Part shown: positions 15,941 to 46,497 of the stretch, piece by piece
How the letters are laid out: every line of letters starts with the position of its first letter
Numbering within the stretch: the stretch's first letter is position 1
Origin: Candidatus Omnitrophota bacterium
GTDB lineage: Bacteria > Omnitrophota > Gorgyraeia > Gygaellales > Profunditerraquicolaceae
Direction: 5' to 3'
Assembly (NCBI GenBank): GCA_022710715.1
Contig: JAKLGJ010000004.1
Location: 128,166-192,165 of the forward strand
DNA length: 64,000 bases
Position numbers and translations under genes: made by a program
The notes under the pieces: generated by a model
The model's input: only the letters and a program-made list of their open reading frames with translations
The model's database searches: none
Told to the model about the DNA's origin: nothing

Positions 15941-15949
15941 CGAAAAAAA

Positions 15950-16279
15950 ATGAAAACGATCATCCTGCTTACCATCTCGAATATTTTCATGACTTTTGCC
16001 TGGTACGGTCACCTGAAATACCGGAATTCGCCGTTATGGATAGCGATCGCGGTCAGCTGGTCGATCGCGCTGGTGGAATACTGTTTTCAGGTCCCGGCCA
16101 ACCGCATCGGGTCGTATCATTTTTCAACCGCGCAGTTGAAAACCATCCAGGAAGTGATCACCCTGGCGGTGTTCGTGGTCTTTTCCCTGTTCTATCTGAA
16201 AGAAGATTTCAAGTGGAACTACCTGGCCGGCTTTCTGTGCATCATCGCCGCCGTTTTCTTTGTTTTCAAAAAGTGGTAG
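15950..16279 (+). CDS. DMT-superfamily small membrane protein (DUF486-like)
   Basis: 109 aa with three to four predicted TM helices. The N-terminus MKTIILLTISNIFMTFAWYGHLKY resembles the DUF486 family. Confidence 0.65.
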   Translation: MKTIILLTISNIFMTFAWYGHLKYRNSPLWIAIAVSWSIALVEYCFQVPANRIGSYHFSTAQLKTIQEVITLAVFVVFSLFYLKEDFKWNYLAGFLCIIAAVFFVFKKW

Positions 16280-17463: not shown

Positions 17464-17467
17464 CGCT

Positions 17468-17496
17468 TTGACAAACCCGATTGCTGCGGTTACAAT
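17468..17496 (+). promoter_or_regulatory. Near-consensus sigma70 promoter TTGACA-17-TACAAT for the metF-acsB operon
   Basis: ttgaca at 17468-17473, a 17-nt spacer and tacaat at 17491-17496. The metF ATG at 17522 is about 20 nt downstream of the predicted transcription start. Confidence 0.5.
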
Positions 17497-17521
17497 AAAT
17501 GATGAGCACAAAGAGAACGCA

Positions 17522-30184: not shown

Positions 30185-30232
30185 AGGGGTGTTTGTCTTT
30201 ATTTAAAATCAATCTATCGGGAGTGCGGTCGC

Positions 30233-31495
30233 ATGGATAAATTAGTGATTCGCGGCGGGCAGAAGCTTAAAGGGGAAGTTACCATTTCCGGTTCCAAGAA
30301 TTCGGTATTGCCGATTCTCGCTGCGACGCTGTTGACTGACGAGAAATGCGTGATCAGGGACGTTCCGGCATTGCGGGATACCAATACGATGTTCAGGATC
30401 CTGCGCTCGCTGGGCAAGACCGTGGAACTCGAAAAAGGAGTGGTGACGGTCAGCGGGTCCAAGGAATGCGGATGGGTGGCGGATTACAAGCTGGTGTCTA
30501 CCATGCGCGCATCTTTTTGCGTGCTCGGGCCGCTGCTGGGCAAATTGAAGAAAGCCCAGGTGTCTTTACCCGGCGGCTGCGTGATCGGCGTGCGGCCGGT
30601 CGATCTGCACATTAAAGGCGTCAAGGCCCTGGGCGCGCACATCGATGTGGAAGGCGGCTATGTGATCGCCCACGCCAAGCGACTCAAAGGCGCGCATATC
30701 TATCTGGGCGGCGAGTACGGCTCTTCGGTGCTGGCTACCGGCAACGTGATGATGGCTGCCGTGTGCGCAGAGGGGAAGACCATCCTTGAATCCGCGGCCT
30801 GCGAGCCGGAAGTGGCGGATCTCGGGGATTTTTTGATCAAGATGGGAGCCAGGATCAAAGGCCACGGCACTCCGATCATTGAGATCGAAGGGGTCAAGAA
30901 ACTCCATGGCGTGGCGCATACCATTATTCCTGATCGTATCGAAGCCGGGACTTTTATGGTCGCCTCACTGATTACCGACGGCGATATTACCATCAAGAAT
31001 GTCAATCCCCGTCATCTGGGGGCGCTTCTGGACAAATTGAAAGAGGCCGGCGCGGTGATCTCGGAATCCGCGATGAGTATGCGGGTGGTGCGCAAGAAAC
31101 AGCTGCGGCCGGTCAATATCACCACGCTGCCGTATCCGGGATTTCCCACCGATATGCAGGCGCAGATCATGGCTTTGATGACCGTTACCCCGGGGATCAG
31201 CGTGATCACGGAAAAAATCTATCCGGATCGTTTCATGCATGTCGCGGAGCTCAACCGCATGGGTGCGCATATTCAGCGCGAAGGGCCGCACGCTATCGTT
31301 GAAGGGGTCAGGTATCTTTCCGGCGCTCCGGTGATGGCGTCAGACCTGCGCGCTTCCGCGTGTCTGGTGCTGGCCGGGCTGGTAGCGAAGGGCACCACCA
31401 CGATTTCCAGGATTTACCATCTGGAGCGCGGATATGAGAATATCGACACCAAGCTGCAGTCTTTGGGGGCCAAGATCTGGAGAGAGAAGGAATAA
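30233..31495 (+). CDS. murA: UDP-N-acetylglucosamine 1-carboxyvinyltransferase
   Basis: MDKLVIRGGQKLKGEVTISGSKNSVLPILAATLL with the active-site Cys in GGCVIGVRPVDLH. 420 aa. Confidence 0.95.
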   Translation: MDKLVIRGGQKLKGEVTISGSKNSVLPILAATLLTDEKCVIRDVPALRDTNTMFRILRSLGKTVELEKGVVTVSGSKECGWVADYKLVSTMRASFCVLGPLLGKLKKAQVSLPGGCVIGVRPVDLHIKGVKALGAHIDVEGGYVIAHAKRLKGAHIYLGGEYGSSVLATGNVMMAAVCAEGKTILESAACEPEVADLGDFLIKMGARIKGHGTPIIEIEGVKKLHGVAHTIIPDRIEAGTFMVASLITDGDITIKNVNPRHLGALLDKLKEAGAVISESAMSMRVVRKKQLRPVNITTLPYPGFPTDMQAQIMALMTVTPGISVITEKIYPDRFMHVAELNRMGAHIQREGPHAIVEGVRYLSGAPVMASDLRASACLVLAGLVAKGTTTISRIYHLERGYENIDTKLQSLGAKIWREKE

Positions 31496-31498
31496 TCC

Positions 31499-32062
31499 AT
31501 GATCCTGATGATCGACAATTACGATTCATTTACCTATAACCTGGTGCAGTATCTCGGCGAGCTGGGAGCGCAGGTCAAGGTGGCGCGCAACGACGTTATT
31601 GACGGCGAAGGTATCGCCCGTTTGAAACCGGAGAAGATCATTATCTCCCCGGGGCCGGGAGGGCCGGCGGATGCCGGTATTTCCTGCGAGGCGATCCGTC
31701 GGTTTGCCGGTACCGTCCCGCTGCTGGGGGTATGTCTCGGCCATCAATGCATCGGCGCGGTGTTCGGGGGGAAAGTGGTCAGAGCGAAACATCTGATGCA
31801 CGGCAAAACCTCCGCTATTTTCCATAACGGCCGTTCGCTCTTCGCGGGATTGAGCAATCCATTCGCGGCTACGCGGTATCATTCGCTGCTGGTGGAGCGG
31901 GCGAGTTTTCCCGCCTGCCTGGAGATAACCGCCTGGACCCGCCAGCGGGAGATTATGGGGTTGAAGCATCGTCGTCTGCCGGTGTGGGGGGTGCAGTTCC
32001 ATCCGGAATCGATCCTGACCGTGGAAGGCAAAAAGCTGTTAGCTAATTTTATCAGACTATGA
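31499..32062 (+). CDS. trpG: Anthranilate synthase component II / type 1 glutamine amidotransferase
   Basis: [23 protein letters not shown], the catalytic GVCLGHQ and the HPES motif. 187 aa. Confidence 0.85.
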
Positions 32063-33069
32063 TCCAGACTTTGACCGCGAAACTGCAACGCCGGGAGAAT
32101 CTGACCGCAGAAGAGATGACTGCCGCCATGCAACAGATCATGAGCGGCGCAGCCCAGACTGCCGATATCGTGGCTTTTCTCCAGTCTTTAAGCGCCAAGG
32201 GCGAGACGATCGATGAAATTGCCGCTGCGGCGCGGGTGATGCGCAGTTTCGCTTTGCCGTTGAAAACGTCCCGGGAGATCATTCTGGATACCTGCGGCAC
32301 GGGAGGAGATCGCAAGGGGACGTTCAATATTTCCACCGCCGTCGCTTTCGTGGTGGCGGGCTGCGGCGTGGCGGTCGCCAAGCACGGCAACCGGTCCGTT
32401 ACCAGCCAGTGCGGCAGCGCGGATATCCTGGAGGCGGTGGGGATCGCCATTCAGATGCCGGTCGAGAAGATCGAGCGGTGTCTGGAGGAAGTGGGGATCG
32501 CTTTTTTATTCGCCCAGCAATTTCATCCGGCGATGAAACATGCCATGCCCGCGCGTAAACAGATCGGGACGCGGACGATTTTCAATATCCTTGGTCCTCT
32601 GTGCAATCCCGCGAAGGCCACGCATCAACTGATCGGCGTGTTCGATCGCGCTTTGCCCCGGACGATTGCCGGCGTGCTGGGGCAGCTCGGCACCAGCCAC
32701 GCCGTGGTGGTGCACGGCCACGACGGTCTCGACGAGGTCAGTCTTACCGACAAGACGCACATCGCGGAATTCCGCGGAGGCGTTGTTTCGGAATACGAGA
32801 TCGCTCCCGAAGAGTTTGGGTTCAAACGCGCGCAGATGGACGATCTGGCGGGGGGGGACGTTTCCGAAAATCTTCAGATCCTGCTGGAAGTGCTTAACGG
32901 CCGCGCCGGCGTGCGACGGAATATGGTTGTGTTGAACGCCGCGGCAGCGCTGTATGCCGCCGATAAGACCGCGTCGATACAGGAGGGGATCCCTCTGGCC
33001 CAGGATTCTCTGGATTCGGGACGGGCACTCAAAAAACTCGCCGTGCTTAAAGAATTCTCACGGCACTAA
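32059..33069 (+). CDS. trpD: Anthranilate phosphoribosyltransferase
   Basis: DTCGTGGD and [18 protein letters not shown] motifs. Confidence 0.9.
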
Positions 33070-33085
33070 AGGACTTCCGACACCC

Positions 33086-33943
33086 ATGGGAAAGACCGAT
33101 ACGTTAAAAGAAATCATTGCCAGGAAGAAAGAGCGGATCGCGCAGGCGCAGCAGTCATTGCCGGAGGCAGAGCTTATTGCCCGGCTGACGGGTCTGCCGC
33201 CGACCCGGCCGTTCCTGCAGGCGGTGAACAGGCCGCGGCAGATCTCTCTGATCGCCGAGATCAAAAAACAATCCCCTTCGCAGGGGCTTTTGCGCGAAGC
33301 GTTCAATCCCGCGGCGATCGCTGCGGTGTATCAGCAGGCAGGGGCGCAGGCCGTGTCCGTGCTGACCGAGGAAGACTTTTTCGCCGGCGCGCCCGGTTTC
33401 ATCAACGAGGTCAAGCAGGCGGTCGCGCTGCCGGTGTTGCGCAAGGATTTCATCCTTGAGCCATATCAGGTGTATGAGTCGCGTCTGATCGGCGCCGACG
33501 CGATTTTGCTTATCGCGGATATACTTTCCAAAGAGACGCTGATGGATCTGATCAGGCGCGCGGATGCGCTGGGCATGGACTGTCTGGTTGAAGTACATGA
33601 TGAGAAAGAGCTCAAGAAAGTTCTGGGGTTGAAGATCATGCCCGAACCGCCGCAGCCGGATGCGCTCAAGGTATCGTCCAGGAAGGCCGCCCGGAAAACG
33701 ATTGAATTCATGCTCGGGATCAATAACCGCAATCTGCGTACGCTTGAAGTGGACCTGAAGACCACGGAGCGGTTGTATCCGCTGGTTCCCAAGGACAGGG
33801 TGGTGGTGGTGGAAAGCGGGATCAAACAGTATCAGGACGTGTTGTTCCTTAAAGTACTGGGCGTTAACGCTATTCTTGTCGGAGAAGTGCTGATGCGCTC
33901 TGCGGATGTACAGTCGCAGATCCTTGACCTCATGGGCTGGTAA
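33086..33943 (+). CDS. trpC: Indole-3-glycerol phosphate synthase
   Basis: IAEIKKQSPSQG, LRKDFI, GINNRNL and VESGI motifs. Start ATG 33086 is inside ORF 32954. Confidence 0.85.
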   Translation: MGKTDTLKEIIARKKERIAQAQQSLPEAELIARLTGLPPTRPFLQAVNRPRQISLIAEIKKQSPSQGLLREAFNPAAIAAVYQQAGAQAVSVLTEEDFFAGAPGFINEVKQAVALPVLRKDFILEPYQVYESRLIGADAILLIADILSKETLMDLIRRADALGMDCLVEVHDEKELKKVLGLKIMPEPPQPDALKVSSRKAARKTIEFMLGINNRNLRTLEVDLKTTERLYPLVPKDRVVVVESGIKQYQDVLFLKVLGVNAILVGEVLMRSADVQSQILDLMGW

Positions 33944-33944
33944 G

Positions 33945-34574
33945 GTGCGGACAAAGATCAAGATATGCGGGATCACTACCCGTGCCGATGTCGGGCAGGC
34001 AATTGCCTGCGGGTGTGACGCGGTAGGGTTCGTTTTTTATAAGCGCAGCCCCCGGTATGTCAGCCCGCGAGCTGCAGCAGCGATAATCGCCGCTGTGCCC
34101 GCAGGAGTGGAACGGGTCGGCGTATTCGTGAATGCCCGGGAGCGCACCGTGCGGCAGGTCGCCCGGAGATGCGGGTTGACCATGGTGCAGTTTCACGGCG
34201 ACGAGTCGCCGGCATTCTGCCGGCGATTCAGGGGATGGCGGATAATAAAGGCGCTGCGGGTCAGAAGCGCCGGCGATATCTCCCAGGCCTCCCGTTACCG
34301 GACATCCGCCGTGCTCTTCGACACTTTCAGCGCGGACGGTTTCGGCGGCACCGGCAGGCGGTTCGACTGGAACCTGCTGCGCCGGGCGAATGTGCGCCAG
34401 ACGGTTTTTTTGTCCGGGGGATTGACGCCTGCAACCGTGGCCGGCGCTGTCCGGTTGGTGAAACCTGCCTGGGTGGACGTGTCCAGCGGTGTGGAGCGCA
34501 GTCCCGGGCGCAAGGATGCGCGTAAAATACGCGCATTTGTCCGTGCGGTGAAACGCGCCGAAAAGCATGATTAA
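33945..34574 (+). CDS. trpF: Phosphoribosylanthranilate isomerase
   Basis: IKICGITTRADVGQAIACGCDAVGFVF and QFHGDES. The likely start is GTG 33945, just after the trpC stop; the table ORF begins at 33906. Confidence 0.8.
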   Translation: MRTKIKICGITTRADVGQAIACGCDAVGFVFYKRSPRYVSPRAAAAIIAAVPAGVERVGVFVNARERTVRQVARRCGLTMVQFHGDESPAFCRRFRGWRIIKALRVRSAGDISQASRYRTSAVLFDTFSADGFGGTGRRFDWNLLRRANVRQTVFLSGGLTPATVAGAVRLVKPAWVDVSSGVERSPGRKDARKIRAFVRAVKRAEKHD

Positions 34575-35121
34575 AAACGGAGGAGCAATGATGAGGGGAC
34601 GGATTAAGCGGCTTGTGGCGCTCTGCAGCGTGTGTATCCTCGCCGGCAGCGTTCATGTCCACGCGCAGCAGGTGAGAACGTATACCAACAAGAATCTGCA
34701 TTTCAAGCTTCAGTATCCGGCGGATTTTCAAGTCAAGACTATCAACGGCGCGATTATTCTCTCTTCTCCCCTGAAGAGCCAGAAAGACACCTTTGCCGAA
34801 AGCGTCAACATTGTTACGCTGGGCGCAGATCGGGGCGTCAATAATCTCAAGGATTTCTATGGTCAGGCCAGGAAGAGCATGCAGGAAACCATGCTTAAGG
34901 TGAAGATCATCGAGGATAAGAAGATAACCCTGGGCGGAAAAGAGGCGTATCTGCTGGTCTATACCTCTCTGCGCAAGAAAACCACTTTTAAATTCATGCA
35001 GGTTATGACCATGAACGATAGACTGGTGTATGTAGTGACCTATACCGCTTTGCCGGAAACCTATGAAGAGTATCTGCGTCCGGTTAAAGCCATGCTGAAT
35101 TCGTTCGCCTTCGTTAAATAA
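34567..35121 (+). CDS. Secreted protein, PsbP/DcrB (DUF1795)-like fold candidate
   Basis: Signal peptide RIKRLVALCSVCILAGSVHVHAQQ, then a ~150 aa domain whose conserved hydrophobic pattern (QYPADF..., MQVMT..., YVVTYTA) resembles PsbP-like periplasmic proteins. The family assignment is tentative. Confidence 0.45.
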   Translation: MIKNGGAMMRGRIKRLVALCSVCILAGSVHVHAQQVRTYTNKNLHFKLQYPADFQVKTINGAIILSSPLKSQKDTFAESVNIVTLGADRGVNNLKDFYGQARKSMQETMLKVKIIEDKKITLGGKEAYLLVYTSLRKKTTFKFMQVMTMNDRLVYVVTYTALPETYEEYLRPVKAMLNSFAFVK

Positions 35122-35135
35122 AGGGGGTAGTAGTA

Positions 35136-36485
35136 ATGGCGCTATCAGGTTTAGACATCTATAAGCTTTTACCCAAGACGAACTGTAAGGCCTGCGGTTT
35201 CCCCACCTGCCTGGCTTTTGCCATGCAACTGGCCAAGAAGGCGGTCAGCATCGATGCCTGTCCTTCGGTAAGCAAGGAAACTAAAGCGGCGCTGGAAGCG
35301 GCAGCCCAGCCGCCGATACGGCTGGTCAGCGTCGGCCGCCCGGAAAAGCCGCTGGACATGGGCAATGAAACAGTGCTCTTCCGGCACGAAGAGAAATTCC
35401 GTAATCCCTGCGGTCTGGGGTTCGTTATCGACGACAGTTTGTCCGACGATGAGATAACCGTCCGGGTGCAGAAGATCAACCAGCTGAAATTCGAGCGCGT
35501 GGGGCAGGAATTGCAGGTCAACGCCGTGGCGGTCAAGCAGACCGGTAACGCCGAACGTTTCGTGGAAGCGGTGAGACTGGTCGGCGCCCGGACGCAACTG
35601 GCGATCGTGTTGATGAGTCAGGATGCGCAGGCGCTTGCGGGCGCTCTGCCGCTGCTTAAAGATACCAAACCCGTGGTTTTTTCGGTGACCGGCGCGTCCG
35701 TCGATTCGCTGCTGCCGGCGATCGCGCCGTTCAAGCCGGCGGTAGTGGTATCCGCTTCCGACCTGCAGGGAGTTGCCGCGTTGACGCAGCAGCTGACCCG
35801 GCAGGGGATACAGGACATTCTTCTGGACACCGGCGCCAAGCCGTGCGCGCAGAAACTCTGGGATCTTACGCAGATCCGCAGGCTGGCTTTGAGGAAATCC
35901 GAGCGAAGTCTGGGTTTCCCGTCTATCGTCGTGGTGGATGAGCAGGATCCGGCTGCGGAAGCCCTGCAGGCAGCCACGTACATACTCAAATACGCCGGTC
36001 TGGTGCTGGTGAGAAGCATAGAGAACTGGCAATCCTACGCATTATTAACGCTGCGCCAGAACATTTACAGCGATCCGCAAAAACCGTTGCAGATCGAGCC
36101 GAAATTGTACGAGATCGGAACAGTGACCAGAGAATCCCCGGTCCTGGTGACCACTAATTTTTCCTTGAGCTACTATACGGTACTGGGAGAGGTGGAAGCC
36201 AGCAAGATCCCCGTGTATATTTTGAGCGTGGATACCGAAGGCATGTCGGTTCTGACCGCGTGGGCAGCCGAAAAATTCACCCCGGAGCGCATCACCCAGA
36301 CATTGCAGAAAATGGCTGTGCGCGACAAAGCGCAGAAGAGCGCTCTGGTTATCCCCGGGTACGTCGCGGTGATGAGCGGCGATCTCGAGGATCAGAGCAA
36401 ATGGGATATCATCGTGGGGCCGAAGGAAGCTTCGGGCATCCCGGCATTCCTGAAAACGTTGGGACATGGCAAAGCTAACCGTTAA
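35136..36485 (+). CDS. acsC: Corrinoid iron-sulfur protein large subunit (CODH/ACS gamma subunit)
   Basis: N-terminal Fe-S site MALSGLDIYKLLPKTNCKACGFPTCLAFAMQLA, and close co-linearity with Moorella AcsC (ETVLFRHEEKF, DLTQIRRLALRK, TNFSLSYYTVLGEVEASKIPVYILSVDTEGMSVLTAWA). Confidence 0.9.
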   Translation: MALSGLDIYKLLPKTNCKACGFPTCLAFAMQLAKKAVSIDACPSVSKETKAALEAAAQPPIRLVSVGRPEKPLDMGNETVLFRHEEKFRNPCGLGFVIDDSLSDDEITVRVQKINQLKFERVGQELQVNAVAVKQTGNAERFVEAVRLVGARTQLAIVLMSQDAQALAGALPLLKDTKPVVFSVTGASVDSLLPAIAPFKPAVVVSASDLQGVAALTQQLTRQGIQDILLDTGAKPCAQKLWDLTQIRRLALRKSERSLGFPSIVVVDEQDPAAEALQAATYILKYAGLVLVRSIENWQSYALLTLRQNIYSDPQKPLQIEPKLYEIGTVTRESPVLVTTNFSLSYYTVLGEVEASKIPVYILSVDTEGMSVLTAWAAEKFTPERITQTLQKMAVRDKAQKSALVIPGYVAVMSGDLEDQSKWDIIVGPKEASGIPAFLKTLGHGKANR

Positions 36486-38391
36486 GTTCATACCTGATAA
36501 TAAGACCGTCGAGGTCGAAAAGGACCGGACCATCGCTTCGGCCGCCCTTTCCGCCGGCGTGCCGTTGAACGCCGCCTGCGGGGGGGACGGCGTTTGCGGC
36601 CGATGCAGGGTGCTGGTACGCAAAGGCCAGGTCGGCGCGCTGGCTACCGGCAGGATGAGCCTGGCAGATATGCGTAAAGGTTTGTATCTGGCTTGCCAGA
36701 CTACGGTGCAGAGCGATCTGGAAGTCGAGGTCCCGGCGGAGTCCCGCCTGGATATGGACCGGCTGTCCGCCGAAGAGATCGACCGGCGCTTGAAGGGTTT
36801 TTACGGCCCGTCCGAAGATGTGCAGTCGTTGGAAGCGGCCGCGCCGGTCAAACCGGCTTTCACCGGCTCTGCGTTGACCGAGAAACTGTACCTGGAATTG
36901 CCGCCTCCGACGTTGCAGGATTGTATCAGCGATCTGGAGCGTCTCTATCGACAGATCCAGGCGCAGAAAGACTATATCCCGGAGCACGCGGGGTTGGCGG
37001 CTATCCGTCTCCTGGGAGAACTCCTGCGCTCTGCGCAGTGGAAAGTCACCGCCACCGTGGGCAAGCGCTATGGCATCATCGAATTGCTGGACGTTGAGCC
37101 GGGGGATACTGCGTCCCGGAATTTCGGTCTGGTATTCGATATCGGCACGACCACGGTTTCCGGCCAGCTGGTGGATCTGCAATCCGCCCGGGTTCTGGGC
37201 ACCAGAGCTACCTATAACAAGCAGGCCAGCTTCGGCAGCGATGTGATCACCCGCATTATGTACGCGCAGAAGGAGGAAGGGTTAGAGAAGCTGCATCAGG
37301 CGGTCGTTGAGAGCATGAATGCCATCACCCATGATCTGGCTGCCGAAAACAGTATCGATCTCAACGATGTCACCTGCGTGGTCTGCGCCGGCAACACCAC
37401 CATGATACATTTGCTCCTGCGCATCGATCCGACCTATATCCGCCGGGAACCGTATGTTGCCACCGCTAATTTTATTCCTGTGGCGCGCGCGCATGAAGCC
37501 GGAATCCTGGTTAATCCCCGGGCGCTGCTGTTTTGCCTGCCGGGCGTGGCCAGTTACGTGGGAGGAGATGTTACCGCCGGAGTGCTGGCGTGCGGGCTGG
37601 ATACAGCGGACGATGTCAACATCCTGATCGATATCGGGACGAACGGCGAAGTGGTCGTGGGTAATAAAGAATTTCTGGTCTGCGCGGCAGCTTCCGCCGG
37701 CCCGGCGTTCGAAGGGTCCGGGGTAAGCTGCGGAATGCGCTCGAGTATCGGGGCGATACAGAAAGTCACCATCGATCCGAAAGCATTCGCGGTGCGGTAT
37801 GAAACTATCGGGTCGGCTCCTGCCCGCGGTATCTGCGGCTCCGGGTACATCGACTGTATTGCGGCGATGCTTACCTGCGGGTTGCTGGATAAAGACGGTA
37901 AGATAAAAGCCATCGATAATCCCCGGATCCGCGCGACGGGCGCCGGCAGGGAATTCGTTCTGGCGGCGGCAGGAGAAAACGGTTGTCAGGCGGATATCGT
38001 GATCACCGAAGCGGATATCGATAATATCAAACGGGCCAAAGCGGCGATCTATGCGGCCGTCGTAAGTCTGCTGAAACATATTTCGCTCGATTTCCCCGCG
38101 ATAAAGCGGATTTTTATCGCCGGAGGGTTCGGAACGTCGCTGGATATCGCCAGCGCTATCACCATCGGATTGCTTCCCGCTTTGAAGAAAGAAACATTCG
38201 TTTTTGTGGGCAACAGCTCCCTTACCGGGGCCAGGAATACGATCCTGTCCGAAGAGGCCTGCGCGACGGCGGATGAGATTGCCCACAAGATGACGTACTG
38301 CGAACTTTCCGTTGAGCCGGGATATATGGAAGAATATATGGCGGCGTTGTTCTTTCCCCATACGGATATAGCGCGTTTCGGGAAGAAATAG
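36466..38391 (+). CDS. Corrinoid activation/regeneration protein (RACo-type; 2Fe-2S ferredoxin domain plus ASKHA ATPase domain)
   Basis: N-terminal plant-type ferredoxin motif CGGDGVCGRCRV and a C-terminal ASKHA-like domain. At 641 aa it sits exactly where orf7/RACo lies in the Moorella acs operon. Confidence 0.8.
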   Translation: MAKLTVKFIPDNKTVEVEKDRTIASAALSAGVPLNAACGGDGVCGRCRVLVRKGQVGALATGRMSLADMRKGLYLACQTTVQSDLEVEVPAESRLDMDRLSAEEIDRRLKGFYGPSEDVQSLEAAAPVKPAFTGSALTEKLYLELPPPTLQDCISDLERLYRQIQAQKDYIPEHAGLAAIRLLGELLRSAQWKVTATVGKRYGIIELLDVEPGDTASRNFGLVFDIGTTTVSGQLVDLQSARVLGTRATYNKQASFGSDVITRIMYAQKEEGLEKLHQAVVESMNAITHDLAAENSIDLNDVTCVVCAGNTTMIHLLLRIDPTYIRREPYVATANFIPVARAHEAGILVNPRALLFCLPGVASYVGGDVTAGVLACGLDTADDVNILIDIGTNGEVVVGNKEFLVCAAASAGPAFEGSGVSCGMRSSIGAIQKVTIDPKAFAVRYETIGSAPARGICGSGYIDCIAAMLTCGLLDKDGKIKAIDNPRIRATGAGREFVLAAAGENGCQADIVITEADIDNIKRAKAAIYAAVVSLLKHISLDFPAIKRIFIAGGFGTSLDIASAITIGLLPALKKETFVFVGNSSLTGARNTILSEEACATADEIAHKMTYCELSVEPGYMEEYMAALFFPHTDIARFGKK

Positions 38392-38394
38392 ACT

Positions 38395-39144
38395 ATGGCA
38401 TACGTTATCGCGCTGGCAGGCAAAGGGGGTACCGGCAAGACGACTATCGCCGGGTTGATCGTCAGATTGCTGGGGGAGAGCAAACGCGGCTCCGTGCTGG
38501 CAGTGGATGCCGACCCCAACAGTAATCTCGGCGAAGTGCTGGGTGTGACGCCGCAGGAAACGATCGGCGAGATCCTTGATTTCATCGGCGCCCATCCCGA
38601 TAAAATTCCGGCGGGGATGACCAAGGACCGTTTCATCGAGTATAAAGTTCAAACTGCGGTCCAGGAGGCCAAAGGTTTCGACCTGTTGACCATGGGCAAG
38701 CCCGAAGGGCCGGGTTGTTACTGTTATGTGAACAATGTCCTGCGCAGCGTGGTCGAGCGGTTGATGCAGGAATACGATTATGTGGTCATTGACAATGAAG
38801 CGGGGCTGGAGCATCTTTCGCGCCGGACTACCCGTCGAGCCGACTGCCTGCTGGTCGTGGCGCAGCCCAGCGCGGTGTCGTTGAAAGCCGCGCAGAGGAT
38901 CAAACAGCTGGTCGGTCAGTTGCAGATAGAGACGCGCCAGTCGGTACTGTTGATCAATGCCAGCCGGGGCAGGGTTGATCCCGCGCAGGTGCGTGAAACC
39001 GGTTTGCTCCTGGCCGGGAAGCTCGCTTTCGACCAGACGCTGGCGCGCTTGAGCGCGCGCGGGTCGTCATTGACGGGTTTAAGCCGGCGATCAAAGATGA
39101 TGGCGACTCTGGAAAAAATTCTGAAAAAAACAATCGACCATTGA
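38395..39144 (+). CDS. cooC: CODH/ACS nickel-insertion accessory ATPase (CooC/AcsF, MinD/ParA family)
   Basis: Deviant Walker A box ALAGKGGTGKTTIAGL and VDADPNSNL, at 249 aa. Its place between RACo and acsD matches acsF. Confidence 0.85.
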   Translation: MAYVIALAGKGGTGKTTIAGLIVRLLGESKRGSVLAVDADPNSNLGEVLGVTPQETIGEILDFIGAHPDKIPAGMTKDRFIEYKVQTAVQEAKGFDLLTMGKPEGPGCYCYVNNVLRSVVERLMQEYDYVVIDNEAGLEHLSRRTTRRADCLLVVAQPSAVSLKAAQRIKQLVGQLQIETRQSVLLINASRGRVDPAQVRETGLLLAGKLAFDQTLARLSARGSSLTGLSRRSKMMATLEKILKKTIDH

Positions 39145-39171
39145 TCCCCCCGTTAACGAGAAGAGGTTTCT

Positions 39172-40134
39172 ATGGCAATCGAAGCGTTACTGGAGAAGTG
39201 GCAGGGAAAGATAAACAGCGTGACTATCGGGGCTACCGCCGCGGAAGGCGGAACGCGGACGCACACGGTTACCGTGGGCGGTCAGACGGCGCTGCCGTTC
39301 TTGTTCAAAGAAGGCGCTTTGCCGAACAAGCCGGTCATAGCTTTCGAGATCTGGGACTGCGCCCCGGACGACTGGCCGCCGGAACTGGCAACGGTCTACC
39401 GGGCGGATTGGTCGCATCCTCTGGAGTGGGCCGCGCGTTGCGTCAAAGAATACAAAGCCGGATTATTGAGCGTCCGGTTGCAGGGATTGCATCCTGACTG
39501 CGGGAACAAAAAGCCGGAAGAGGCGGCGGAGTTCGTCCGCGCTTTATTAAAAAAGACCGGTGTGCCGTTGATCATCACCGGTTGCGGCGACGATGACAAA
39601 GACAACATCGCATTGCCGTTGTGTTCGGAAGCAGCCAAAGGCCAGCGCTGCCTGTTCGGTTCGGCGCTGCAGGATAATTATAAAACGTTGACCGCTGCGG
39701 TGCTGGCTGACGGTCATTCGCTGATCGCGGAATCCCCGATCGATATCAATATCGCCAAACAGCTGAACATTTTGATTTCGGATATGGGGTTGAGCCCAGC
39801 GCGGCTGGTGATCAATCCGACTATCGGACCGCTGGGCTACGGCCTGGAGTATGCCTATTCGATCATGGAGCGCTGCCGTCTTGCGGCGCTGGCCGGCGAC
39901 ACGATGGTGGCCATGCCCTTTATCTGTTTCGTCGGACAGGAATCATGGAAAATAAAAGAGGCGCGGGCGAGCATCCGGGAATTCCCGCAATGGGGACCGG
40001 AGAAAGAGCGCGGGATCATCTGGGAAGCCATGACTGCCGCGGCTTTGATACAGGCCGGCGCGGATATCCTGGTCATGCGTCATCCCGTTGCCGCGCAAAA
40101 AGTCAGGGAGTATATCGACAGCCTATGTTCATAA
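39172..40134 (+). CDS. acsD: Corrinoid iron-sulfur protein small subunit (CODH/ACS delta subunit)
   Basis: Aligns with Moorella AcsD throughout (GGTRTHTVTVGG, ALPF, NKPVIAFEIWD, CKQLNILI, GYGLEYAYSIMER, GAHILLMRHP). Confidence 0.9.
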   Translation: MAIEALLEKWQGKINSVTIGATAAEGGTRTHTVTVGGQTALPFLFKEGALPNKPVIAFEIWDCAPDDWPPELATVYRADWSHPLEWAARCVKEYKAGLLSVRLQGLHPDCGNKKPEEAAEFVRALLKKTGVPLIITGCGDDDKDNIALPLCSEAAKGQRCLFGSALQDNYKTLTAAVLADGHSLIAESPIDINIAKQLNILISDMGLSPARLVINPTIGPLGYGLEYAYSIMERCRLAALAGDTMVAMPFICFVGQESWKIKEARASIREFPQWGPEKERGIIWEAMTAAALIQAGADILVMRHPVAAQKVREYIDSLCS

Positions 40135-40916
40135 TCGGAGAGCTTATTAACGGCATGTACCGGCAGATCGCCGCCGCGCTTAAAGCCAAAGACGCTGCAG
40201 CGATACAGAATTGCGCCCGCCAGCAGCTTGCTGCCGGCGCGCAGGCGCTGGATATCAACTGCGGGCCGGGTTCAGCCGATCCGGTCAGGGACATGGTGTG
40301 GCTGGTGGAGACGGTGCAGTCGGTTGCCGCAAGCATGATCGTGCTGGACGCCAGCAAGCCGGCGGTGATCGAGGCGGGATTGCAGGCCGCCCGGGTACCG
40401 ACGATGATCAATTCTACGACCGCGGACAGAGAAAAACTGGAAGTGCTGGTGGGGCTGGCCAGGCGCTATAACGCCAAGTTGATCGGGCTGGCCATGGACG
40501 CCCGCGGCATCCCGCAGAACAAGGATCAGCGCCTGGAATTGGCGGCGTCCATAGTATCGTTCTGCGCGGAAAAAGAATTTCCCCTGGAGGATCTCTATCT
40601 GGACCCGGTGCTGCTGCCGGTCAAAGTAGGCCAGGCCCACCTGGAGGCGATCCTGGAATCGATACGCGAGTTCAAGATCATTTCCCGGCCGAGCCCCAAA
40701 ACCGTTGTGGGGTTGAGCAATGTATCCCAGGGGATTCCAGCAGTCAGGAGCCTGATCAATCGCACGTTTTTAAGCATGGCGGCCGCCGCCGGACTGGACG
40801 CGGCGATACTCGATCCGCTGGACAAGGATCTGATGGATACCTTGATCACGGCCGAAGTGATCCTGAACAAAGAGATTTATTGCGATTCATTCTTGACCGG
40901 GCGGCGAAAGAAGTAG
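40125..40916 (+). CDS. acsE: Methyl-THF:corrinoid iron-sulfur protein methyltransferase
   Basis: MFIIGELINGMY...ALDINCGP...MINSTTADREK...GLSNVSQG...NRTFL align with Moorella AcsE (pterin-binding TIM barrel). Start ATG 40125 overlaps the acsD stop. Confidence 0.9.
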   Translation: MFIIGELINGMYRQIAAALKAKDAAAIQNCARQQLAAGAQALDINCGPGSADPVRDMVWLVETVQSVAASMIVLDASKPAVIEAGLQAARVPTMINSTTADREKLEVLVGLARRYNAKLIGLAMDARGIPQNKDQRLELAASIVSFCAEKEFPLEDLYLDPVLLPVKVGQAHLEAILESIREFKIISRPSPKTVVGLSNVSQGIPAVRSLINRTFLSMAAAAGLDAAILDPLDKDLMDTLITAEVILNKEIYCDSFLTGRRKK

Positions 40917-40942
40917 ATAATAGTTCAACGAGGTGAAGAGTA

Positions 40943-42238
40943 ATGCGGAATGCGCGCTGGATGGTATCCGTTTTTTTTGTGCTGGCGACGTCAGTCGTCG
41001 CGACTGCCCAGGTAGATTTCAAAGAGCTGGTCAGGATCGAAGCCGACTACATCCTCTCCTGCCAGTATGTGAGCGAAACCGATCCTGCTTCGGGAGCCAT
41101 TAATAATGTCTATGGCCTGCCGACGTGGGTGGTGCCGCGTGAAAATGCCCTGGCCATCCTGGCCCTGGTGCAGGCTGCCGAGATCCTCGATGACGAGCAG
41201 TACATCCAGCGGGCGCGCCTGGCCGCGGATTATCTCGTACGTATCCAGGATACAGACGGCGCCTGGTATAATCAATATCGTTATACCGCCGCCGGCGATC
41301 CGGATAATCCGGATCGCAGCGAGACGCTGGCAAAGTCGCCGACCCAGGCCGCGGAAGTGATGATCGCTCTGTACCGGCTCGGGTACGAATCCGGTTATTA
41401 TCCGGCGATGAAAAAGGCCGCCGGTTATTTGATGGCCTGTCAGAACAGCGGCGGCAACGGCTTCCTGCTGGGCGGCGGCAAGGACGCGCAGGGGGTGTTT
41501 CGCAGCTGGCGCTGGGCGTCGGACAACGCATTCGCTTTCCAGGCGCTTAAGGCCGCCGAGACCTGGGCGGTGATGCATAACGATCTGCGCTTCGCTCTGT
41601 TCTGCTCCAGGTCTGCCCGCAAGATCGCCGTCGGGATCAACAGGAATTTATACATCGCAGACAAAAAAGATCCCGATTACGGGGTCTGGCACCGGGTTGT
41701 GGATGAGATGAATATCCCGGTCGAACCGTTGCGCCACGACTGGATCAATTACGCTCCCCAGATGCTGGATCTGCCCTGCAAGGGAGTGAATAACGCCAGA
41801 GTCGGCCACTGGATACACCGCACTCTGCAGAATGAACATTTTGCCTGCATCTGGGACGACACGCAGTTCACCCACCGGGAATCGCCCGGATATACGTTCC
41901 AGGCGGTGCTGTGCTGGCGCGACCTCGGCCAGGAAGAATATTTTTTCAAAGCGTTGATCTGGGCTTTGAACAGCGGTCTGTGGAAAAATACCATTGATTG
42001 TAATCCGGCGGTCGGCGGCTGGGTAGACTGGCAGGATACGCAAACCGGCGAGCAGTCTCCCTGCTGGCAGCGTTTCATCGACACCAGCTTTTATTCGATC
42101 GCCGCTTTTAACGGCGGATATGCGTTCAGGGTCATTCCGAGTTTCTTGCGTATCAGTTATTCCAATCCCAAGACAACTTCCGGCGCCCCCTGTTATCTGC
42201 AATTGAGTTTTCCTGAAACGGAGTCCGAGACGGAATAA
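40943..42238 (+). CDS. Secreted protein with prenyltransferase/terpene-cyclase-like alpha/alpha-toroid repeats (function unknown)
   Basis: Signal peptide MRNARWMVSVFFVLATSVVATAQ. Repeated motifs of the form QxxDG(A/G)W and ENALAILAL suggest an (alpha/alpha)6 toroid. The family assignment is tentative. Confidence 0.45.
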   Translation: MRNARWMVSVFFVLATSVVATAQVDFKELVRIEADYILSCQYVSETDPASGAINNVYGLPTWVVPRENALAILALVQAAEILDDEQYIQRARLAADYLVRIQDTDGAWYNQYRYTAAGDPDNPDRSETLAKSPTQAAEVMIALYRLGYESGYYPAMKKAAGYLMACQNSGGNGFLLGGGKDAQGVFRSWRWASDNAFAFQALKAAETWAVMHNDLRFALFCSRSARKIAVGINRNLYIADKKDPDYGVWHRVVDEMNIPVEPLRHDWINYAPQMLDLPCKGVNNARVGHWIHRTLQNEHFACIWDDTQFTHRESPGYTFQAVLCWRDLGQEEYFFKALIWALNSGLWKNTIDCNPAVGGWVDWQDTQTGEQSPCWQRFIDTSFYSIAAFNGGYAFRVIPSFLRISYSNPKTTSGAPCYLQLSFPETESETE

Positions 42239-42244
42239 AGCCAC

Positions 42245-43444
42245 ATGTCACGACAACTACCCGATACAAAAGGATATTTCGGTCAATTCGGCGGGATGTT
42301 TGTTCCGGAAACGCTGGTTGCCGCCCTGCAGGCGCTGGCTGCGGAGTACGCCCGGGCCAGAACCGATGCGCGTTTCCGGGACGCGCTGCGTTATTATCTG
42401 ACGGAATACGCCGGTCGGCCGACCCCGTTGTATCGCGCGGATAACCTGGCGAAAGAACTGGGTATCCGCAGGGTATACCTCAAGCGGGAAGACCTGCTGC
42501 ATACCGGCGCGCATAAGATCAATAACTGCCTTGGTCAGATCCTGCTGGCTAAGCGCATGCACAAAACCCGGGTGATCGCGGAAACCGGCGCCGGCCAGCA
42601 CGGCGTGGCTACGGCTACGGTGGCGGCGCTGTTCGGCATGCGCTGCGTGGTTTTCATGGGCGCGGAAGATATCGAGCGGCAGAAGCTCAATGTTTTTCGC
42701 ATGAAATTGCTCGGCGCGCAGGTGGTGCCGGTCACCAGCGGTTCCCGGACGCTCAAAGACGCGATCAACGAAGCTATGCGCGACTGGGTCACCAATGTCG
42801 CCACTACATTCTATATTTTCGGCACTGTTGCCGGCCCGCATCCCTACCCGCTGATCGTGCGCGATTTTCAGGCGGTGATCGGGCAGGAATCGCGCCGGCA
42901 GCTGTTGCGCAGGGAAAAGCGCCTGCCGGATTATCTGGTCGCCTGTGTCGGCGGCGGGAGCAACGCCATGGGTATGTTCTATCCGTTTTTCCGGGACAGG
43001 AGCGTGCGTTTCATCGGAGTGGAGGCCGGCGGCGAAGGGTTGGCCTCCGGCAGGCACGCAGCCACGCTTTGCCGCGGCAGGATGGGGGTGCTCCACGGAG
43101 CGAAATCCTTCGTCCTGGAGGATGCTTTCGGCCAGATCAAAGCCACGCATTCGATTTCCGCAGGGCTGGATTATCCCGGGGTGGGACCGGAACACGCCTA
43201 TTATCAATTAAGCCGCCGGGCGCAGTACGTTTCGGTGACCGACAAGCAGGCGCTCGAAGCGGTCCAGATGCTTTCCCGCACCGAAGGGATCATTCCCGCG
43301 CTGGAATCCGCGCATGCGCTGGCGTATCTTAAAAAGATGCCGGCGCGCAAAAAAAAGGACGCGTTGATGGTGGTTTGCGTATCGGGAAGAGGCGATAAGG
43401 ATATGCCCACCGTCATGAAAGCCATGCACTATGAGCAGGATTGA
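42245..43444 (+). CDS. trpB: Tryptophan synthase beta chain
   Basis: Motifs HTGAHKINN (PLP-binding lysine) and GGGSNA. 399 aa. Confidence 0.95.
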
Positions 43445-44219
43445 AGCCAGGTTCAGCTATTTGAAGAAGAACAGGCGCAAAGCGTTTGTCGCGTTTCTGA
43501 CCGCCGGGTATCCCAATTTGCCGTCGACCGCAGCGTTTATCCGCGCGTTCGACCGGATCGGAGTGGATGTCCTGGAACTGGGGATCCCTTTTTCCGACCC
43601 CATCGCCGACGGGCCGGTGATCCAGGCCGCTTCCCATGAAGCCCTGCGCAAGGGCGTTACCCTCGAAGCGGTACTGCGGGTGGTACGCCGCGCGCGCGAT
43701 CAGGGGGTCAGCCTGCCGATATGTTTCATGTCGTATTACAACCCGGTTTTCTGCTACGGCGTTGAGCGTTTTATCCGGAAAGCCGCAGCTTCAGGCGTCG
43801 ATGGCATGATCATTCCGGATCTTCCCCTGGAGGAAGCCAGGACCTTTTCCCGCCTGGCTCGTCGCCATGGGCTGGATACGATCCTGTTCATCTCGCAGAC
43901 GACCGCCGCCTCCCGGCAGAAGCGGATCGTTGCGCAGTCGCAGGGATTCATCTATTATATTTCTCTGACCGGCACAACCGGGGCGCGCGCCGCTTTGCCT
44001 TCCGGCATCGCCGGACAGGTGCGCAGGATCAAGCGATTGACCGCCAAGCCGGTGTGCGTGGGTTTCGGCATTTCCACTCCCGCCCAGGTCAAGCGTCTGC
44101 AGTCGGCAGCCGACGGCGTTATCGTGGGAAGCGCCATTGTCAGAAAGATCAAGGAATATGCCGGCAGACCGGATATGGTCGAACGCGTGACCGCTTTTGT
44201 GGCGTCTCTGAAAGGATAA
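43431..44219 (+). CDS. trpA: Tryptophan synthase alpha chain
   Basis: [28 protein letters not shown] and YISLTGTTG. Confidence 0.9.
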
Positions 44220-44221
44220 GC

Positions 44222-45487
44222 ATGTATTCCAAGACTATCGTGGGAAACGGCGTGCGGGTGATCAGCTGTCCGATGAAGGACCGGCAGTCCCTGGCTGTCG
44301 GCATATGGGTGGCAGTGGGCAGCCGGTACGAGAACCAGCGCAATGCCGGCATCAGCCATTACCTGGAGCATATGGTTTTCAAAGGCACCGAACATTTTAC
44401 CTGCCAGCAGATCAAGGAATCCATCGAGGGCGTCGGTGGTTCCTTTAACGGGTTCACTTCCGAAGAGATCACCTGTTATTTCGTCAAAATGCCCGGTAGA
44501 TATCTCGATCTGTCGCTGGATATCCTTTCGGATATGGTCCTGTATCCGCAATTGAAGCAAAAGGATGTGCTCAAGGAACGCACGGTTATCCTGGAAGAGA
44601 TAAAAATGTATAAGGATCAACCGCAGAGTCATGTCTACGAATTGCTGGATAAACTGCTCTGGCCGGCGCATCCGCTGGGCATGAGCACGCTGGGCACGGA
44701 GGAGTCGGTCAGCGCCGTCACCCGCGCCGACCTGGCGGCGTACCAGAAACAGAATTATGCGCCGAAGAATATCGTGGTCAGCGTTGCCGGTTCGATCGAC
44801 CCGGTCCTGCTGTCGCGCAAAGTGGCCAGACGTTTTTCCGGCCTGCCGGCTTCGGATACGCTGGCGGCGCTGCCGGTGATCGGCCGTCAGTCAAAAGCGC
44901 AGGTCACGCTGGTCTCCAAGGATACCGAGCAGAGCCATATGGTCATCGGTTTCCCCGGGTTGCACCGCGATCATCCTTTGAAACACGCGCTGGGGCTGCT
45001 GCATATTTCGCTCGGAGCGAATTCCTCCAGCCGGCTCTTCAACGAAGTGCGGGAAAAGCGCGGTCTGGCGTATGAGATCGGCACGCACGTCAAATTCCTC
45101 AAGGATACCGGCGCTTTCATCGTGCATGCCGGCGTGGACAATCGCAAGGTCAAAGATACCATCCGGCTGGTCTTCAAGGAACTGGGCAAGACTACCCGCA
45201 GCGTTCTCTCTCGCGCAGAACTCAAGCGCGCCAGGGAATTCTATCTCGGCCAGCTTACGCTGGCGCTGGAAGATACGATGGACCAGATGATGTGGATCGG
45301 AGAATCCACGGTGTCTCTGGACCGTACCTATACGCTTAAACAGGTCATCAATGAAGTCCAGCGGGTTACTCCCGAAGATATCCGGGAAGTCAGCCGGCTG
45401 CTCTTCCGGTCGAACATGGCGAACCTGGCTTTGATCGGGCCGCTGCGCGAGCATGAGCGCACGATGCTCGAGTGGATGGTGCTGTGA
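44222..45487 (+). CDS. M16-family zinc peptidase (insulinase/pitrilysin-like)
   Basis: Inverted zinc motif HYLEHMVFKGT with the downstream Glu (LEEI). Start ATG 44222 is inside ORF 44054, directly after the trpA stop. Confidence 0.8.
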   Translation: MYSKTIVGNGVRVISCPMKDRQSLAVGIWVAVGSRYENQRNAGISHYLEHMVFKGTEHFTCQQIKESIEGVGGSFNGFTSEEITCYFVKMPGRYLDLSLDILSDMVLYPQLKQKDVLKERTVILEEIKMYKDQPQSHVYELLDKLLWPAHPLGMSTLGTEESVSAVTRADLAAYQKQNYAPKNIVVSVAGSIDPVLLSRKVARRFSGLPASDTLAALPVIGRQSKAQVTLVSKDTEQSHMVIGFPGLHRDHPLKHALGLLHISLGANSSSRLFNEVREKRGLAYEIGTHVKFLKDTGAFIVHAGVDNRKVKDTIRLVFKELGKTTRSVLSRAELKRAREFYLGQLTLALEDTMDQMMWIGESTVSLDRTYTLKQVINEVQRVTPEDIREVSRLLFRSNMANLALIGPLREHERTMLEWMVL

Positions 45488-46497
45488 TGCACATGCTTTT
45501 TTTATTATTCCTGCCCGGGCTGCTGCTGCTGGCTCTTTTATCATTCCTTTTCTCGCTTTCGGAAACTTCTATCATCGGTTTAAGCAAGATCAAGCTGCAT
45601 CATATGCTTTCGCGGGGGATCAAGAACAGCAAAAAGGTGCAGCAGCTCATCACCCAGTCGGATAAGCTGATAGTGACCATCCTGGTGGGCAATAATTTCG
45701 TCAACATCGCTTTTTCGGTTTTGGTATCGGCGTTCCTGGTCAAGCTGCTGGGCGAGCAGTGGGGCGTGGTGCTCGCAACGTTCCTCACCGCCGCGTTCAT
45801 CCTGATCTTCTGCGAAATCCTTCCCAAAATGCTGGCTTTAAAGAATACCGAGCGCATGGCTTTGTTCGTGGCGCCGATCATGAACGTGGGGATCCGTTTG
45901 TTGAATCCGGTGAGCCGGATATTCATGCGCATCAGCGACGGCATCCTGAAGATCCTGCGCATCGAGCTTCCCAAACGTTCGCCTCTGATCACCGAAGAGG
46001 AACTGCGGCTGATGATCGAGGTGGGCAAGGAAACCGGCGTGCTCACCGAAGAAGAGCGCGGCATGCTGCACCGTATTTTCGAGTTCGGGGATACCCGGGT
46101 GGAAGAGGTGATGATCCCCCGGGCGCAGATGGTCGCCGCCAGTATTTCCAGCTCGGCGGAGCAATTGCTGGACATATTCGCCGAAGAGGGGCATTCGCGT
46201 ATTCCGGTCTATAAAGGCTCGCTGGATACCGTGGTCGGGGTGATCTATGCCCGGGATCTGATCTATACAATGCGGGATAAAGGGTTATTCGTGGTACAGG
46301 ACCTGGTGCATCGGGTGTATTCCGCTCCCGCCGGGATGCGGGTGAACGAGCTGCTGCGTAAATTCCAGGCGGAGAAGATGCAGATCGCGATCGTGGTCGG
46401 CCCGGACAACAAAACCCTGGGCGTGGTCACGCTGGAGGACCTGATCGAGGAAATTGTCGGAGAAATCGAGGAACAACACACTCCGGCGGCTAAATAG
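45472..46497 (+). CDS. CNNM/DUF21 transmembrane domain plus CBS-pair protein (HlyC/CorC-type transporter family)
   Basis: Four N-terminal TM helices followed by two CBS domains (EEVMIPR..., RIPVY...VVGVI), with no obvious CorC_HlyC C-terminal domain. Confidence 0.8.
   Translation: MDGAVMHMLFLLFLPGLLLLALLSFLFSLSETSIIGLSKIKLHHMLSRGIKNSKKVQQLITQSDKLIVTILVGNNFVNIAFSVLVSAFLVKLLGEQWGVVLATFLTAAFILIFCEILPKMLALKNTERMALFVAPIMNVGIRLLNPVSRIFMRISDGILKILRIELPKRSPLITEEELRLMIEVGKETGVLTEEERGMLHRIFEFGDTRVEEVMIPRAQMVAASISSSAEQLLDIFAEEGHSRIPVYKGSLDTVVGVIYARDLIYTMRDKGLFVVQDLVHRVYSAPAGMRVNELLRKFQAEKMQIAIVVGPDNKTLGVVTLEDLIEEIVGEIEEQHTPAAK

Follow-up and report, generated by a model that had tools for sequence, protein, structure and literature searches.

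The genes for the corrinoid iron-sulfur protein (CFeSP) of the Wood-Ljungdahl pathway and for its partners are kept together in model acetogenic bacteria: acsB, acsC, acsD and acsE, as well as acsF, were always found clustered in 14 model acetogens (PMC5039349), and the acs clusters of Firmicutes comprise acsC, a gene annotated as a ferredoxin (RACo, the reductive activator of the corrinoid protein), acsF/cooC, acsD and acsE (PMC8671834). Here, we describe a five-gene cassette, acsC-RACo-cooC-acsD-acsE, that lies between the tryptophan-biosynthesis genes trpF and trpB of a Candidatus Omnitrophota bacterium. The stretch analysed, hereafter the window, comprises 64,000 nucleotides (64 kb) of contig JAKLGJ010000004.1 (assembly GCA_022710715.1), and the genome is a streamlined Omnitrophota metagenome-assembled genome. 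We read the region as a Wood-Ljungdahl methyl-transfer cassette of the canonical CFeSP type, native to the phylum, that underwent one ancient relocation into the trpF-trpB junction and has been inherited vertically since, a reading to which we give a probability of about 0.72. What is new is a clade-specific variant of gene order, which is of little mechanistic import, as the components are orthodox and the partial acetyl-CoA pathway of the phylum has already been described.

The internal order of the cassette is that of the Firmicutes acetogens Moorella thermoacetica and Carboxydothermus hydrogenoformans, the clusters of which read acsA-acsB-acsC-ferredoxin/RACo-acsF(cooC)-acsD-acsE (PMC8671834). 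AcsC, AcsD, AcsB and CooC align over all or nearly all of their length with the solved proteins from C. hydrogenoformans or Moorella, with the cofactor motifs intact. Unlike the acetogen cluster, however, the window has its acsB 13.7 kb away in a metF operon, has no adjacent gene for carbon monoxide dehydrogenase (CODH) and carries the cassette nested between trpF and trpB. Omnitrophota of the Velamenicoccus archaeovorus type, as described by Seymour et al. (2023; PMC10066038), are alike in phylum, in possessing acetyl-CoA synthase (ACS) and CFeSP and in their small streamlined genomes, to which the lack of CODH in the window may be added; the passages searched in that paper do not mention the trp-embedded order, and the word 'tryptophan' is absent from its main text.

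The trp genes themselves follow the canonical operon (trpEGDCFBA) in that trpG-D-C-F and trpB-A keep their usual order and overlap or nearly abut, and depart from it in that the window lacks trpE, a leader or a T-box, in being fused into an array that starts at prfA-prmC-murA and in being split by 7.7 kb of unrelated genes. A further parallel is offered by Dehalococcoides mccartyi, which reportedly has an incomplete, CODH-less and anabolic Wood-Ljungdahl pathway in which acetyl-CoA is cleaved to make methyl-tetrahydrofolate (methyl-THF) with CO as a by-product, and which is said, from a 2014 PNAS study, to lack methylenetetrahydrofolate reductase (MTHFR). The likeness lies in an ACS and CFeSP without an adjacent CODH and in the very small genome of an anaerobe, and an anabolic role in the supply of one-carbon (C1) units is conceivable; on the other hand, the window encodes MTHFR, FolD and FchA, and the phylum is different.

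The cassette and its place among the trp genes

Gene calls in the window, based on a listing of open reading frames (ORFs) and on Pfam, NCBIfam and PDB sequence searches, confirmed the order murA-trpG-trpD-trpC-trpF, a PsbP-like gene, acsC-RACo-cooC-acsD-acsE, a gene for a 431-residue protein and trpB-trpA, all on the + strand:

35136-36485, +, acsC, corrinoid iron-sulfur protein large subunit (PF04060 and PF03599; NF003195; 2h9a_A)
36466-38391, +, RACo/AcsV-type ATP-dependent reductive activator of corrinoid protein (Fer2, RACo_linker, Raco_middle and RACo_C_ter; NF040756)
38395-39144, +, CooC/AcsF-type P-loop Ni-insertion ATPase (CooC1 3kje; Pfam AAA_31/CbiA)
39172-40134, +, acsD, corrinoid iron-sulfur protein small subunit (PF03599; NF003376; 4djd_D)
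40125-40916, +, acsE, methyl-THF:corrinoid/Fe-S protein methyltransferase (PF00809, Pterin_bind; NF005719; start as called on public contigs)
34567-35121, +, 184-residue signal-peptide protein (Pfam PsbP_2, PF18933, E = 5e-13, 49.9 bits against a cut-off of 27)
40943-42238, +, 431-residue signal-peptide protein (no match in Pfam or NCBIfam)
31499..34574, +, trpG-trpD-trpC-trpF, first half of the trp genes
31499-32062, +, trpG (Pfam GATase)
32059-33069, +, trpD (Pfam Glycos_transf_3)
33086-33943, +, trpC (Pfam IGPS)
33945-34574, +, trpF (Pfam PRAI; NCBIfam NF002298)
42245..44219, +, trpB-trpA, second half of the trp genes
42245-43444, +, trpB (TIGR00263, 619 bits)
43431-44219, +, trpA (Pfam Trp_syntA)
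30233-31495, +, murA

The interruption between trpF and trpB extends from 34567 to 42238 (7672 nt), and the junctions from trpF through trpB measure, in order, -8, +14, -20, +3, +27, -10, +26 and +6 nt. An earlier note, made from the letters of this DNA alone, had described trpGDCF as directly following murA and as separated from trpBA by 7.7 kb, with junctions overlapping or of 30 nt or less, and both observations are confirmed by these values (-20 to +27 nt). Its five gene identities are borne out by these searches and its Moorella-type order by the published Firmicutes clusters (PMC8671834), and it was also right in placing acsB some 14 kb upstream in a different operon (13.7 kb, in the metF run) and in seeing no CODH catalytic subunit in the window, none being present in the long ORFs of either strand. 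The ORF start listed for acsE (39945) was too early, the real start being at about 40125, and of the two supposedly uncharacterised signal-peptide proteins of 184 and 431 residues, which do bracket the cassette, the smaller belongs to the PsbP_2 family.

AcsC scores 537 bits with NF003195 (cut-off 306), aligns full-length with C. hydrogenoformans 2h9a_A (E = 2.5e-127) and displays the features of a CFeSP large subunit, namely an N-terminal [4Fe-4S] cysteine motif (CkaCgfptC...C, intact), a barrel of the CdhD type and, at the C terminus, a domain for corrinoid binding. AcsD reaches 417 bits with NF003376 (cut-off 280) and matches 4djd_D with E = 9e-103, and AcsE contains PF00809 and scores 278 bits with NF005719 (cut-off 259). 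RACo combines a [2Fe-2S] ferredoxin with an ASKHA ATPase, all four Pfam domains being over their cut-offs; with the NCBIfam AcsV model NF040756 it scores 634 bits, under the strict 800-bit cut-off. The best PDB match of the CooC-type ATPase is CooC1 (3kje, E = 1e-21), with both the P-loop GKGGxGKT and the CxC nickel motif aligned. AcsC, AcsD, AcsE, RACo, CooC and AcsB are all complete with their motifs intact, and every part of the locus belongs to a known family. By homology and conserved motifs, AcsE would transfer methyl groups from methyl-THF to Co(I)-CFeSP or back, RACo would spend ATP to re-reduce Co(II), CooC would contribute to maturation of a nickel site and AcsB would condense or cleave acetyl-CoA, so that the cassette would carry methyl groups to and fro between methyl-THF and AcsB, the gene for which lies 13.7 kb upstream. 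The carbon monoxide could be supplied by a CODH encoded elsewhere in the genome, be taken from outside or arise as a by-product of cleavage.

Two chromosomal homes of the cassette

A scan with an AcsD alignment, restricted to one genome per species, yielded 80 loci (numbered with the prefix L), nearly all from Omnitrophota, across which the five-gene cassette is intact, barring occasional missed or absent single genes, chiefly cooC. The cassette is embedded in the trp genes in eight of these loci and lies in a larB/diacylglycerol kinase (DAGK) context in 60, the remaining 12 being too short to tell; the larB context thereby accounts for 60 of the 68 informative species loci. The order of this second home is ctpA, polysaccharide deacetylase, tsaD, mgtC, bactofilin, a helix-turn-helix gene, larB, (FmdE), cassette, (DAGK), ..., tilS, ftsH, folP, dacA, pdxJ and acpS. 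Two classes have it, namely Gorgyraia (GWA2_41_15) and Velamenicoccia (UBA6253, UBA1562 and B70_G16), according to the class placement in PMC10066038, which covers the larB-context genomes only; neither the JGI sample and contig of the window nor the L008 assembly (GCA_026416665/SKW267) appears in its listing. The CFeSP/RACo/CooC/AcsE genes of Omnitrophota behave as a discrete, relocatable five-gene unit split from acsB, and the two chromosomal homes, larB-adjacent in most lineages and trpF-trpB in one clade, could be used to recognize that clade by synteny.

The trp-embedded position is shared by at least ten further species of Omnitrophota (L005, L007, L008/L047, L013, L014, L017, L023, L035, L036 and L060), and homologues of the 431-residue protein with an identity of no more than 58-62% are found in the order murA-trpGDCF-PsbP-acsC-RACo-cooC-acsD-acsE-431-trpBA-M16-CNNM-...-argS-recJ. 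Conservation among the trp-embedded relatives extends beyond the trp-acs junctions to the whole 20-kb neighbourhood.

Metagenomes were also scanned with an alignment of TrpF, which brought up L090 and L093. The site is without the cassette in L090, a close relative in which murA-trpGDCF is followed after 12 nt by trpBA-M16-CNNM-argS-recJ, and the protein identities of which to the window are comparable to those of the embedded relatives. An otherwise identical array in which only 12 nt part trpF from trpB implies that the cassette truly interrupts this gene pair. L093 likewise has no cassette and carries a 119-residue zinc-ribbon ORF at the junction (2621-2980), and a tree of Trp proteins places L090 and L093 with the embedded genomes in a clade with 100% bootstrap. 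Unrelated cargo occupies the trpF-trpB junction elsewhere (L114, 10615-13469; L162, 10946-11338; L120, 10628-11962), comprising an M48 peptidase, a methyltransferase and an M20 peptidase; a PIN-domain gene; and a DUF2314 gene. A zeta-toxin gene (12193-13013) is found at the acsE-trpB edge of L017 in place of the gene for the 431-residue protein. The junction appears to be a permissive and recurrent landing site.

LarB belongs to nickel-pincer cofactor synthesis, and the cassette directly follows its gene in 60 of the 80 loci, often with a small FmdE-domain gene between them (for example L028, 4883-5997); two nickel-related functions thus stand side by side in these 60 loci. Loci L020, L031, L034, L036, L055, L060 and others have an Omnitrophota-type gene order and 61-69% AcsD identity and are filed under other GenBank names, namely as 'uncultured Planctomycetales' and as MAGs of Deltaproteobacteria, Paceibacterota and Margulisiibacteriota; the labels or the binning of these entries are probably wrong.

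Age and direction of the proposed relocation

Among six embedded genomes the pairwise identities are 57-66% for the cassette, 56-63% for the Trp enzymes and 56-64% for M16, CNNM and ArgS, and the divergence of the cassette correlates with that of the trp and housekeeping proteins (r = 0.77 and 0.71). These equal and correlated identities imply that the cassette diverged in step with its neighbours.

The direction of the move was assessed with neighbour-joining trees based on modest alignments, for which C. hydrogenoformans was the sole outgroup. Relative to it, the Omnitrophota cassettes form one clade, and in the outgroup-rooted tree of AcsC and AcsD the trp-embedded loci are nested among the larB-context loci, with L084, L049 and L071, all in the larB context, at the base. 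A tree of four proteins (1650 columns) unites the six embedded loci with a bootstrap of 48%, and with one of 87% once L040 and L048, both from the larB/DAGK context, are included. The reverse direction, in which the trp-embedded position would be ancestral for acs-bearing Omnitrophota and the larB position derived, finds some comfort in midpoint rooting, which puts the embedded loci at the base of the cassette tree, and in the weak bootstrap of the deep branches. It is nevertheless unlikely, as it is opposed by the outgroup rooting, by the occurrence of the larB context in both Gorgyraia and Velamenicoccia and in most informative loci, and by the lack of a cassette in the closest trp-array relatives, L090 and L093.

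The proposed history is then that the cassette, a self-contained unit apart from acsB, would mostly have resided between larB (with or without the FmdE-domain gene) and the DAGK gene, among unrelated housekeeping genes, and that in the ancestor of one clade, which includes the window genome, it would have moved once into the short trpF-trpB junction. The recipient would have been the long co-directional housekeeping run prfA-prmC-murA-trpGDCF-trpBA-M16-CNNM-argS-recJ, within which the cassette would have been passed on vertically; the PsbP-like gene and the gene for the 431-residue protein would have been added later, at both edges of the cassette and in a sub-clade only.

Several points weigh against this history. 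Monophyly of the embedded loci has a bootstrap of only 48-50%. The empty site would be a secondary loss if L090 and L093 turned out to belong within the embedded clade, and in a search for a cassette-free larB-DAGK site of the window genome none of the best 120 of 8000 equally similar LarB proteins lay on contigs of this genome. The deep conservation of the arrangement could also reflect selection and not just low rates of rearrangement, and the co-transcription of the cassette, likely as it is, is something that we infer from gene layout.

Transcription and a possible link to tryptophan synthesis

None of the junctions of the locus is long enough to accommodate an intergenic terminator or a -35/-10 promoter, and matches to terminator-like and promoter-like consensus sequences occur in the region at the rate of shuffled sequence, with no excess. 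With no intergenic space for such signals and all genes on one strand, read-through co-transcription of the cassette with its neighbours is likely, to judge by strand and junctions. A candidate internal promoter at the 3' end of acsE (40893-40921, 10 of 12 positions matching) was rejected, as L005, L007 and L008 do not share it and matches of this kind are no more frequent than in shuffled sequence. The same junctions measure 32-245 nt in L007, which shows that their tightness belongs to the window genome and not to the arrangement. Co-transcription is therefore likely to stem from a compact co-directional genome that leaves the cassette no room for signals of its own, and not from a functional tie to tryptophan synthesis. 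Tight junctions in streamlined co-directional genomes are, as a caution, not evidence of functional operons or of recent islands.

The placement might instead have been selected, co-expression of the CFeSP/AcsE module with the trp genes coupling C1 metabolism to tryptophan synthesis; for example, cleavage of acetyl-CoA or turnover of methyl-THF could supply methylene-THF and hence serine for TrpB. Such coupling would suit an arrangement that is kept across genomes only about 60% identical in protein, the nearby genes for MTHFR, FolD and FchA, through which methyl-THF could be oxidized to other C1 levels, and the partial CODH-less pathways reported for Omnitrophota (PMC10066038). On the other hand, it is the whole 20-kb neighbourhood that is conserved and not just the trp-acs junctions, the cassette lies among unrelated genes and away from trp in most Omnitrophota, and the junction takes unrelated cargo in other lineages. 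Neither a Trp leader nor a riboswitch was found: Rfam searches at the gathering score revealed no family across 28-47 kb and hence no Trp attenuator, T-box or TRAP leader, nor any tRNA. No biochemical link between the CFeSP/AcsE module and tryptophan synthesis is known, and selected placement is decidedly unlikely. Its most specific form, in which CODH-less Omnitrophota would run ACS, CFeSP and AcsE towards the cleavage of acetyl-CoA so as to feed anabolism with C1 units (from methyl-THF by way of methylene-THF to serine) and co-expression with the serine-consuming trpB and trpA would have been selected, is very unlikely; if true, it would amount to a hitherto unrecognized coupling, at the level of an operon, of the acetyl-CoA pathway to the synthesis of aromatic amino acids.

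Unlikely alternatives: recent insertion and assembly artefact

Compared with the ancient relocation, it is highly improbable that an acs island and two secreted cargo proteins entered the trp operon together by a recent horizontal transfer into this genome. Such an event would account for the interruption of a trpF-trpB pair that is otherwise contiguous (L090) and for the lower GC content of the PsbP-like gene (0.483 against about 0.57). The composition of the cassette itself is native, with a GC content of 0.575-0.590 and a GC content at third codon positions (GC3) of 0.69-0.75, both flank-like, and a relative synonymous codon usage (RSCU) that correlates with the rest of the window at r = 0.953, within the null range (5th percentile 0.943). 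At the edges of the insert, no flanking direct or inverted repeats beyond short matches at chance level, no integrase or transposase domains (Pfam) and no tRNA genes were detected. Added to this are the single clade formed by the Omnitrophota cassettes relative to the one outgroup and the absence of the secreted proteins from several embedded genomes.

The earlier note had envisaged such an insertion and had suggested looking at its composition and at the contiguity of trpF and trpB elsewhere. GC, GC3 and RSCU of the insert turned out to be indistinguishable from the window. The synteny comparison cuts both ways: trpF and trpB are indeed contiguous in L090 (12 nt apart), but the embedded order is shared by at least ten species, the cassettes of which diverge together with the trp and housekeeping proteins, a pattern that the note itself had named as contrary to a recent event. 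Nor do the two secreted proteins fit its proposals, as they can hardly have arrived with the insertion when one or both are missing from several embedded relatives (L060, L014, L036, L023 and L017), and their variable presence, along with the unrelated contexts of homologues of the 431-residue protein and its predicted glycosidase/epimerase-like fold, speaks against novel accessories of the ACS/corrinoid system.

The possibility that an assembly or binning chimera joined trp and acs contigs, which a metagenome-assembled source might raise, is negligible, since the exact 431-residue protein occurs on 14 public contigs, of which the four inspected (JGI, NCBI and ENA; four samples), including a 1.62-Mb JGI contig (3300010429, Ga0116241_10000002) and GCA_035390565.1, have the identical gene order and junctions in 4/4 and exclude a chimera, and since the junctions recur in many other species.

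The secreted proteins at the cassette edges

The 184-residue protein has an N-terminal signal peptide (...VHVHA, followed by QQ after the cleavage point), with a possible alternative start at 34588 (177 residues), and belongs to the PsbP_2 family; its NCBI name is 'PsbP-related'. The GC content of its gene is 0.483, against 0.57-0.63 for every neighbour, and identity among its orthologues is 34-39%, where the other genes of the region reach 52-71% (trpF 47-54%); to judge by these identities, the gene is fast-evolving. A word-based search for homologues gave two relatives, and the gene is absent from L014, L017 and L060.

The 431-residue protein has over 160 homologues; those that carry a name come almost without exception from Omnitrophota, and some members of the family have PEP-CTERM, LamG, dockerin or FN3 additions. 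Its AlphaFold (AF2) model, with a predicted local distance difference test score (pLDDT) of 92.7, is an (alpha/alpha)6 toroid, for which Foldseek returned MmpH, AGE-family 2-epimerases, GH94 and trehalase as PDB neighbours, with template-modelling (TM) scores of about 0.6 and 10-14% identity; the predicted fold is glycosidase/epimerase-like. The protein is rich in tryptophan (16 residues, 3.7%, against 0.72% over 28 window proteins), and many of its tryptophans are invariant across 44 homologues. Homologues at about 50% identity lie in unrelated neighbourhoods, and the gene is absent from L017, L023, L036 and L060.

On the side or sides covered by the contig, nothing separates the cassette from trpF and/or trpB in L060, L014, L036 and L023. 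A role of the secreted proteins as ACS accessories was considered and rejected on account of their absence from several embedded genomes, the PsbP_2 match, the glycosidase-like toroid and the unrelated contexts of the 431-residue homologues. The same absences, contexts, folds and families indicate that both proteins are later, sub-clade-specific additions at the cassette edges, incidental cargo and not partners of the corrinoid system.

ACS, the methyl branch and the absence of CODH from the window

The partner genes of the cassette lie upstream in a separate run:

14563..21472, +, methyl-branch/ACS run of fchA, folD, a tRNA U5-methyltransferase gene, metF, a Pyr_redox_2 gene and acsB (Pfam)

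The acsB gene (19289-21472), 13.7 kb upstream of the cassette, stands behind metF and the Pyr_redox_2 gene, and its product aligns full-length with solved ACS structures, with the cysteine motifs of the A cluster (SCGCFEC) intact. An MTHFR-domain protein is encoded at 17318-18397. The run from fchA and folD to metF and acsB is broken by the tRNA (uracil-5)-methyltransferase-like gene (16036-17463). In the 80 related loci, acsB is absent from the 10 kb on either side of the anchor gene, from which it follows that acsB is set apart from the CFeSP module in every locus of the phylum that was sampled.

Of the long ORFs on the two strands of the window, which covers 64 kb of a genome of at least 1.6 Mb, none contains a CODH (cooS/acsA) domain; a CODH hidden on the antisense strand was considered and discarded, as the ten long antisense ORFs carry no Pfam domain. 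An Omnitrophota CooS, wanted as a probe, was not present among the related loci fetched. Partial Wood-Ljungdahl pathways without AcsA/CooS are reported for Omnitrophota, the enzyme being missing in 24 species, and other Omnitrophota are reported to carry CooS (PMC10066038). A CODH-less partial pathway in this phylum has thus already been published.

The housekeeping array and other genes of the window

The trp genes here are part of a longer housekeeping array and not a free-standing operon:

28291..46497, +, co-directional housekeeping array prfA-prmC-murA-trpGDCF-...-trpBA-M16 peptidase-CNNM (identities from Pfam)

This run, which holds the trp and acs genes, consists of 18 genes from prfA (28291) to the CNNM gene (46497) with every gap at most 48 nt, and nearly every gene of the window is on the + strand. 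The gap between murA and trpG is 3 nt, and the murA-trpG junction also occurs in the relatives L017, L047, L060, L090 and L126. No trpE was found anywhere in the window, in which trpS lies at 2467-3456, and no methionine synthase was seen in it. The sole Rfam matches of the window are three tRNA genes clustered after frr (53977-54367). The genes metK and ahcY, of the S-adenosylmethionine cycle, lie close together at 58200-60949, about 16 kb downstream of the cassette.

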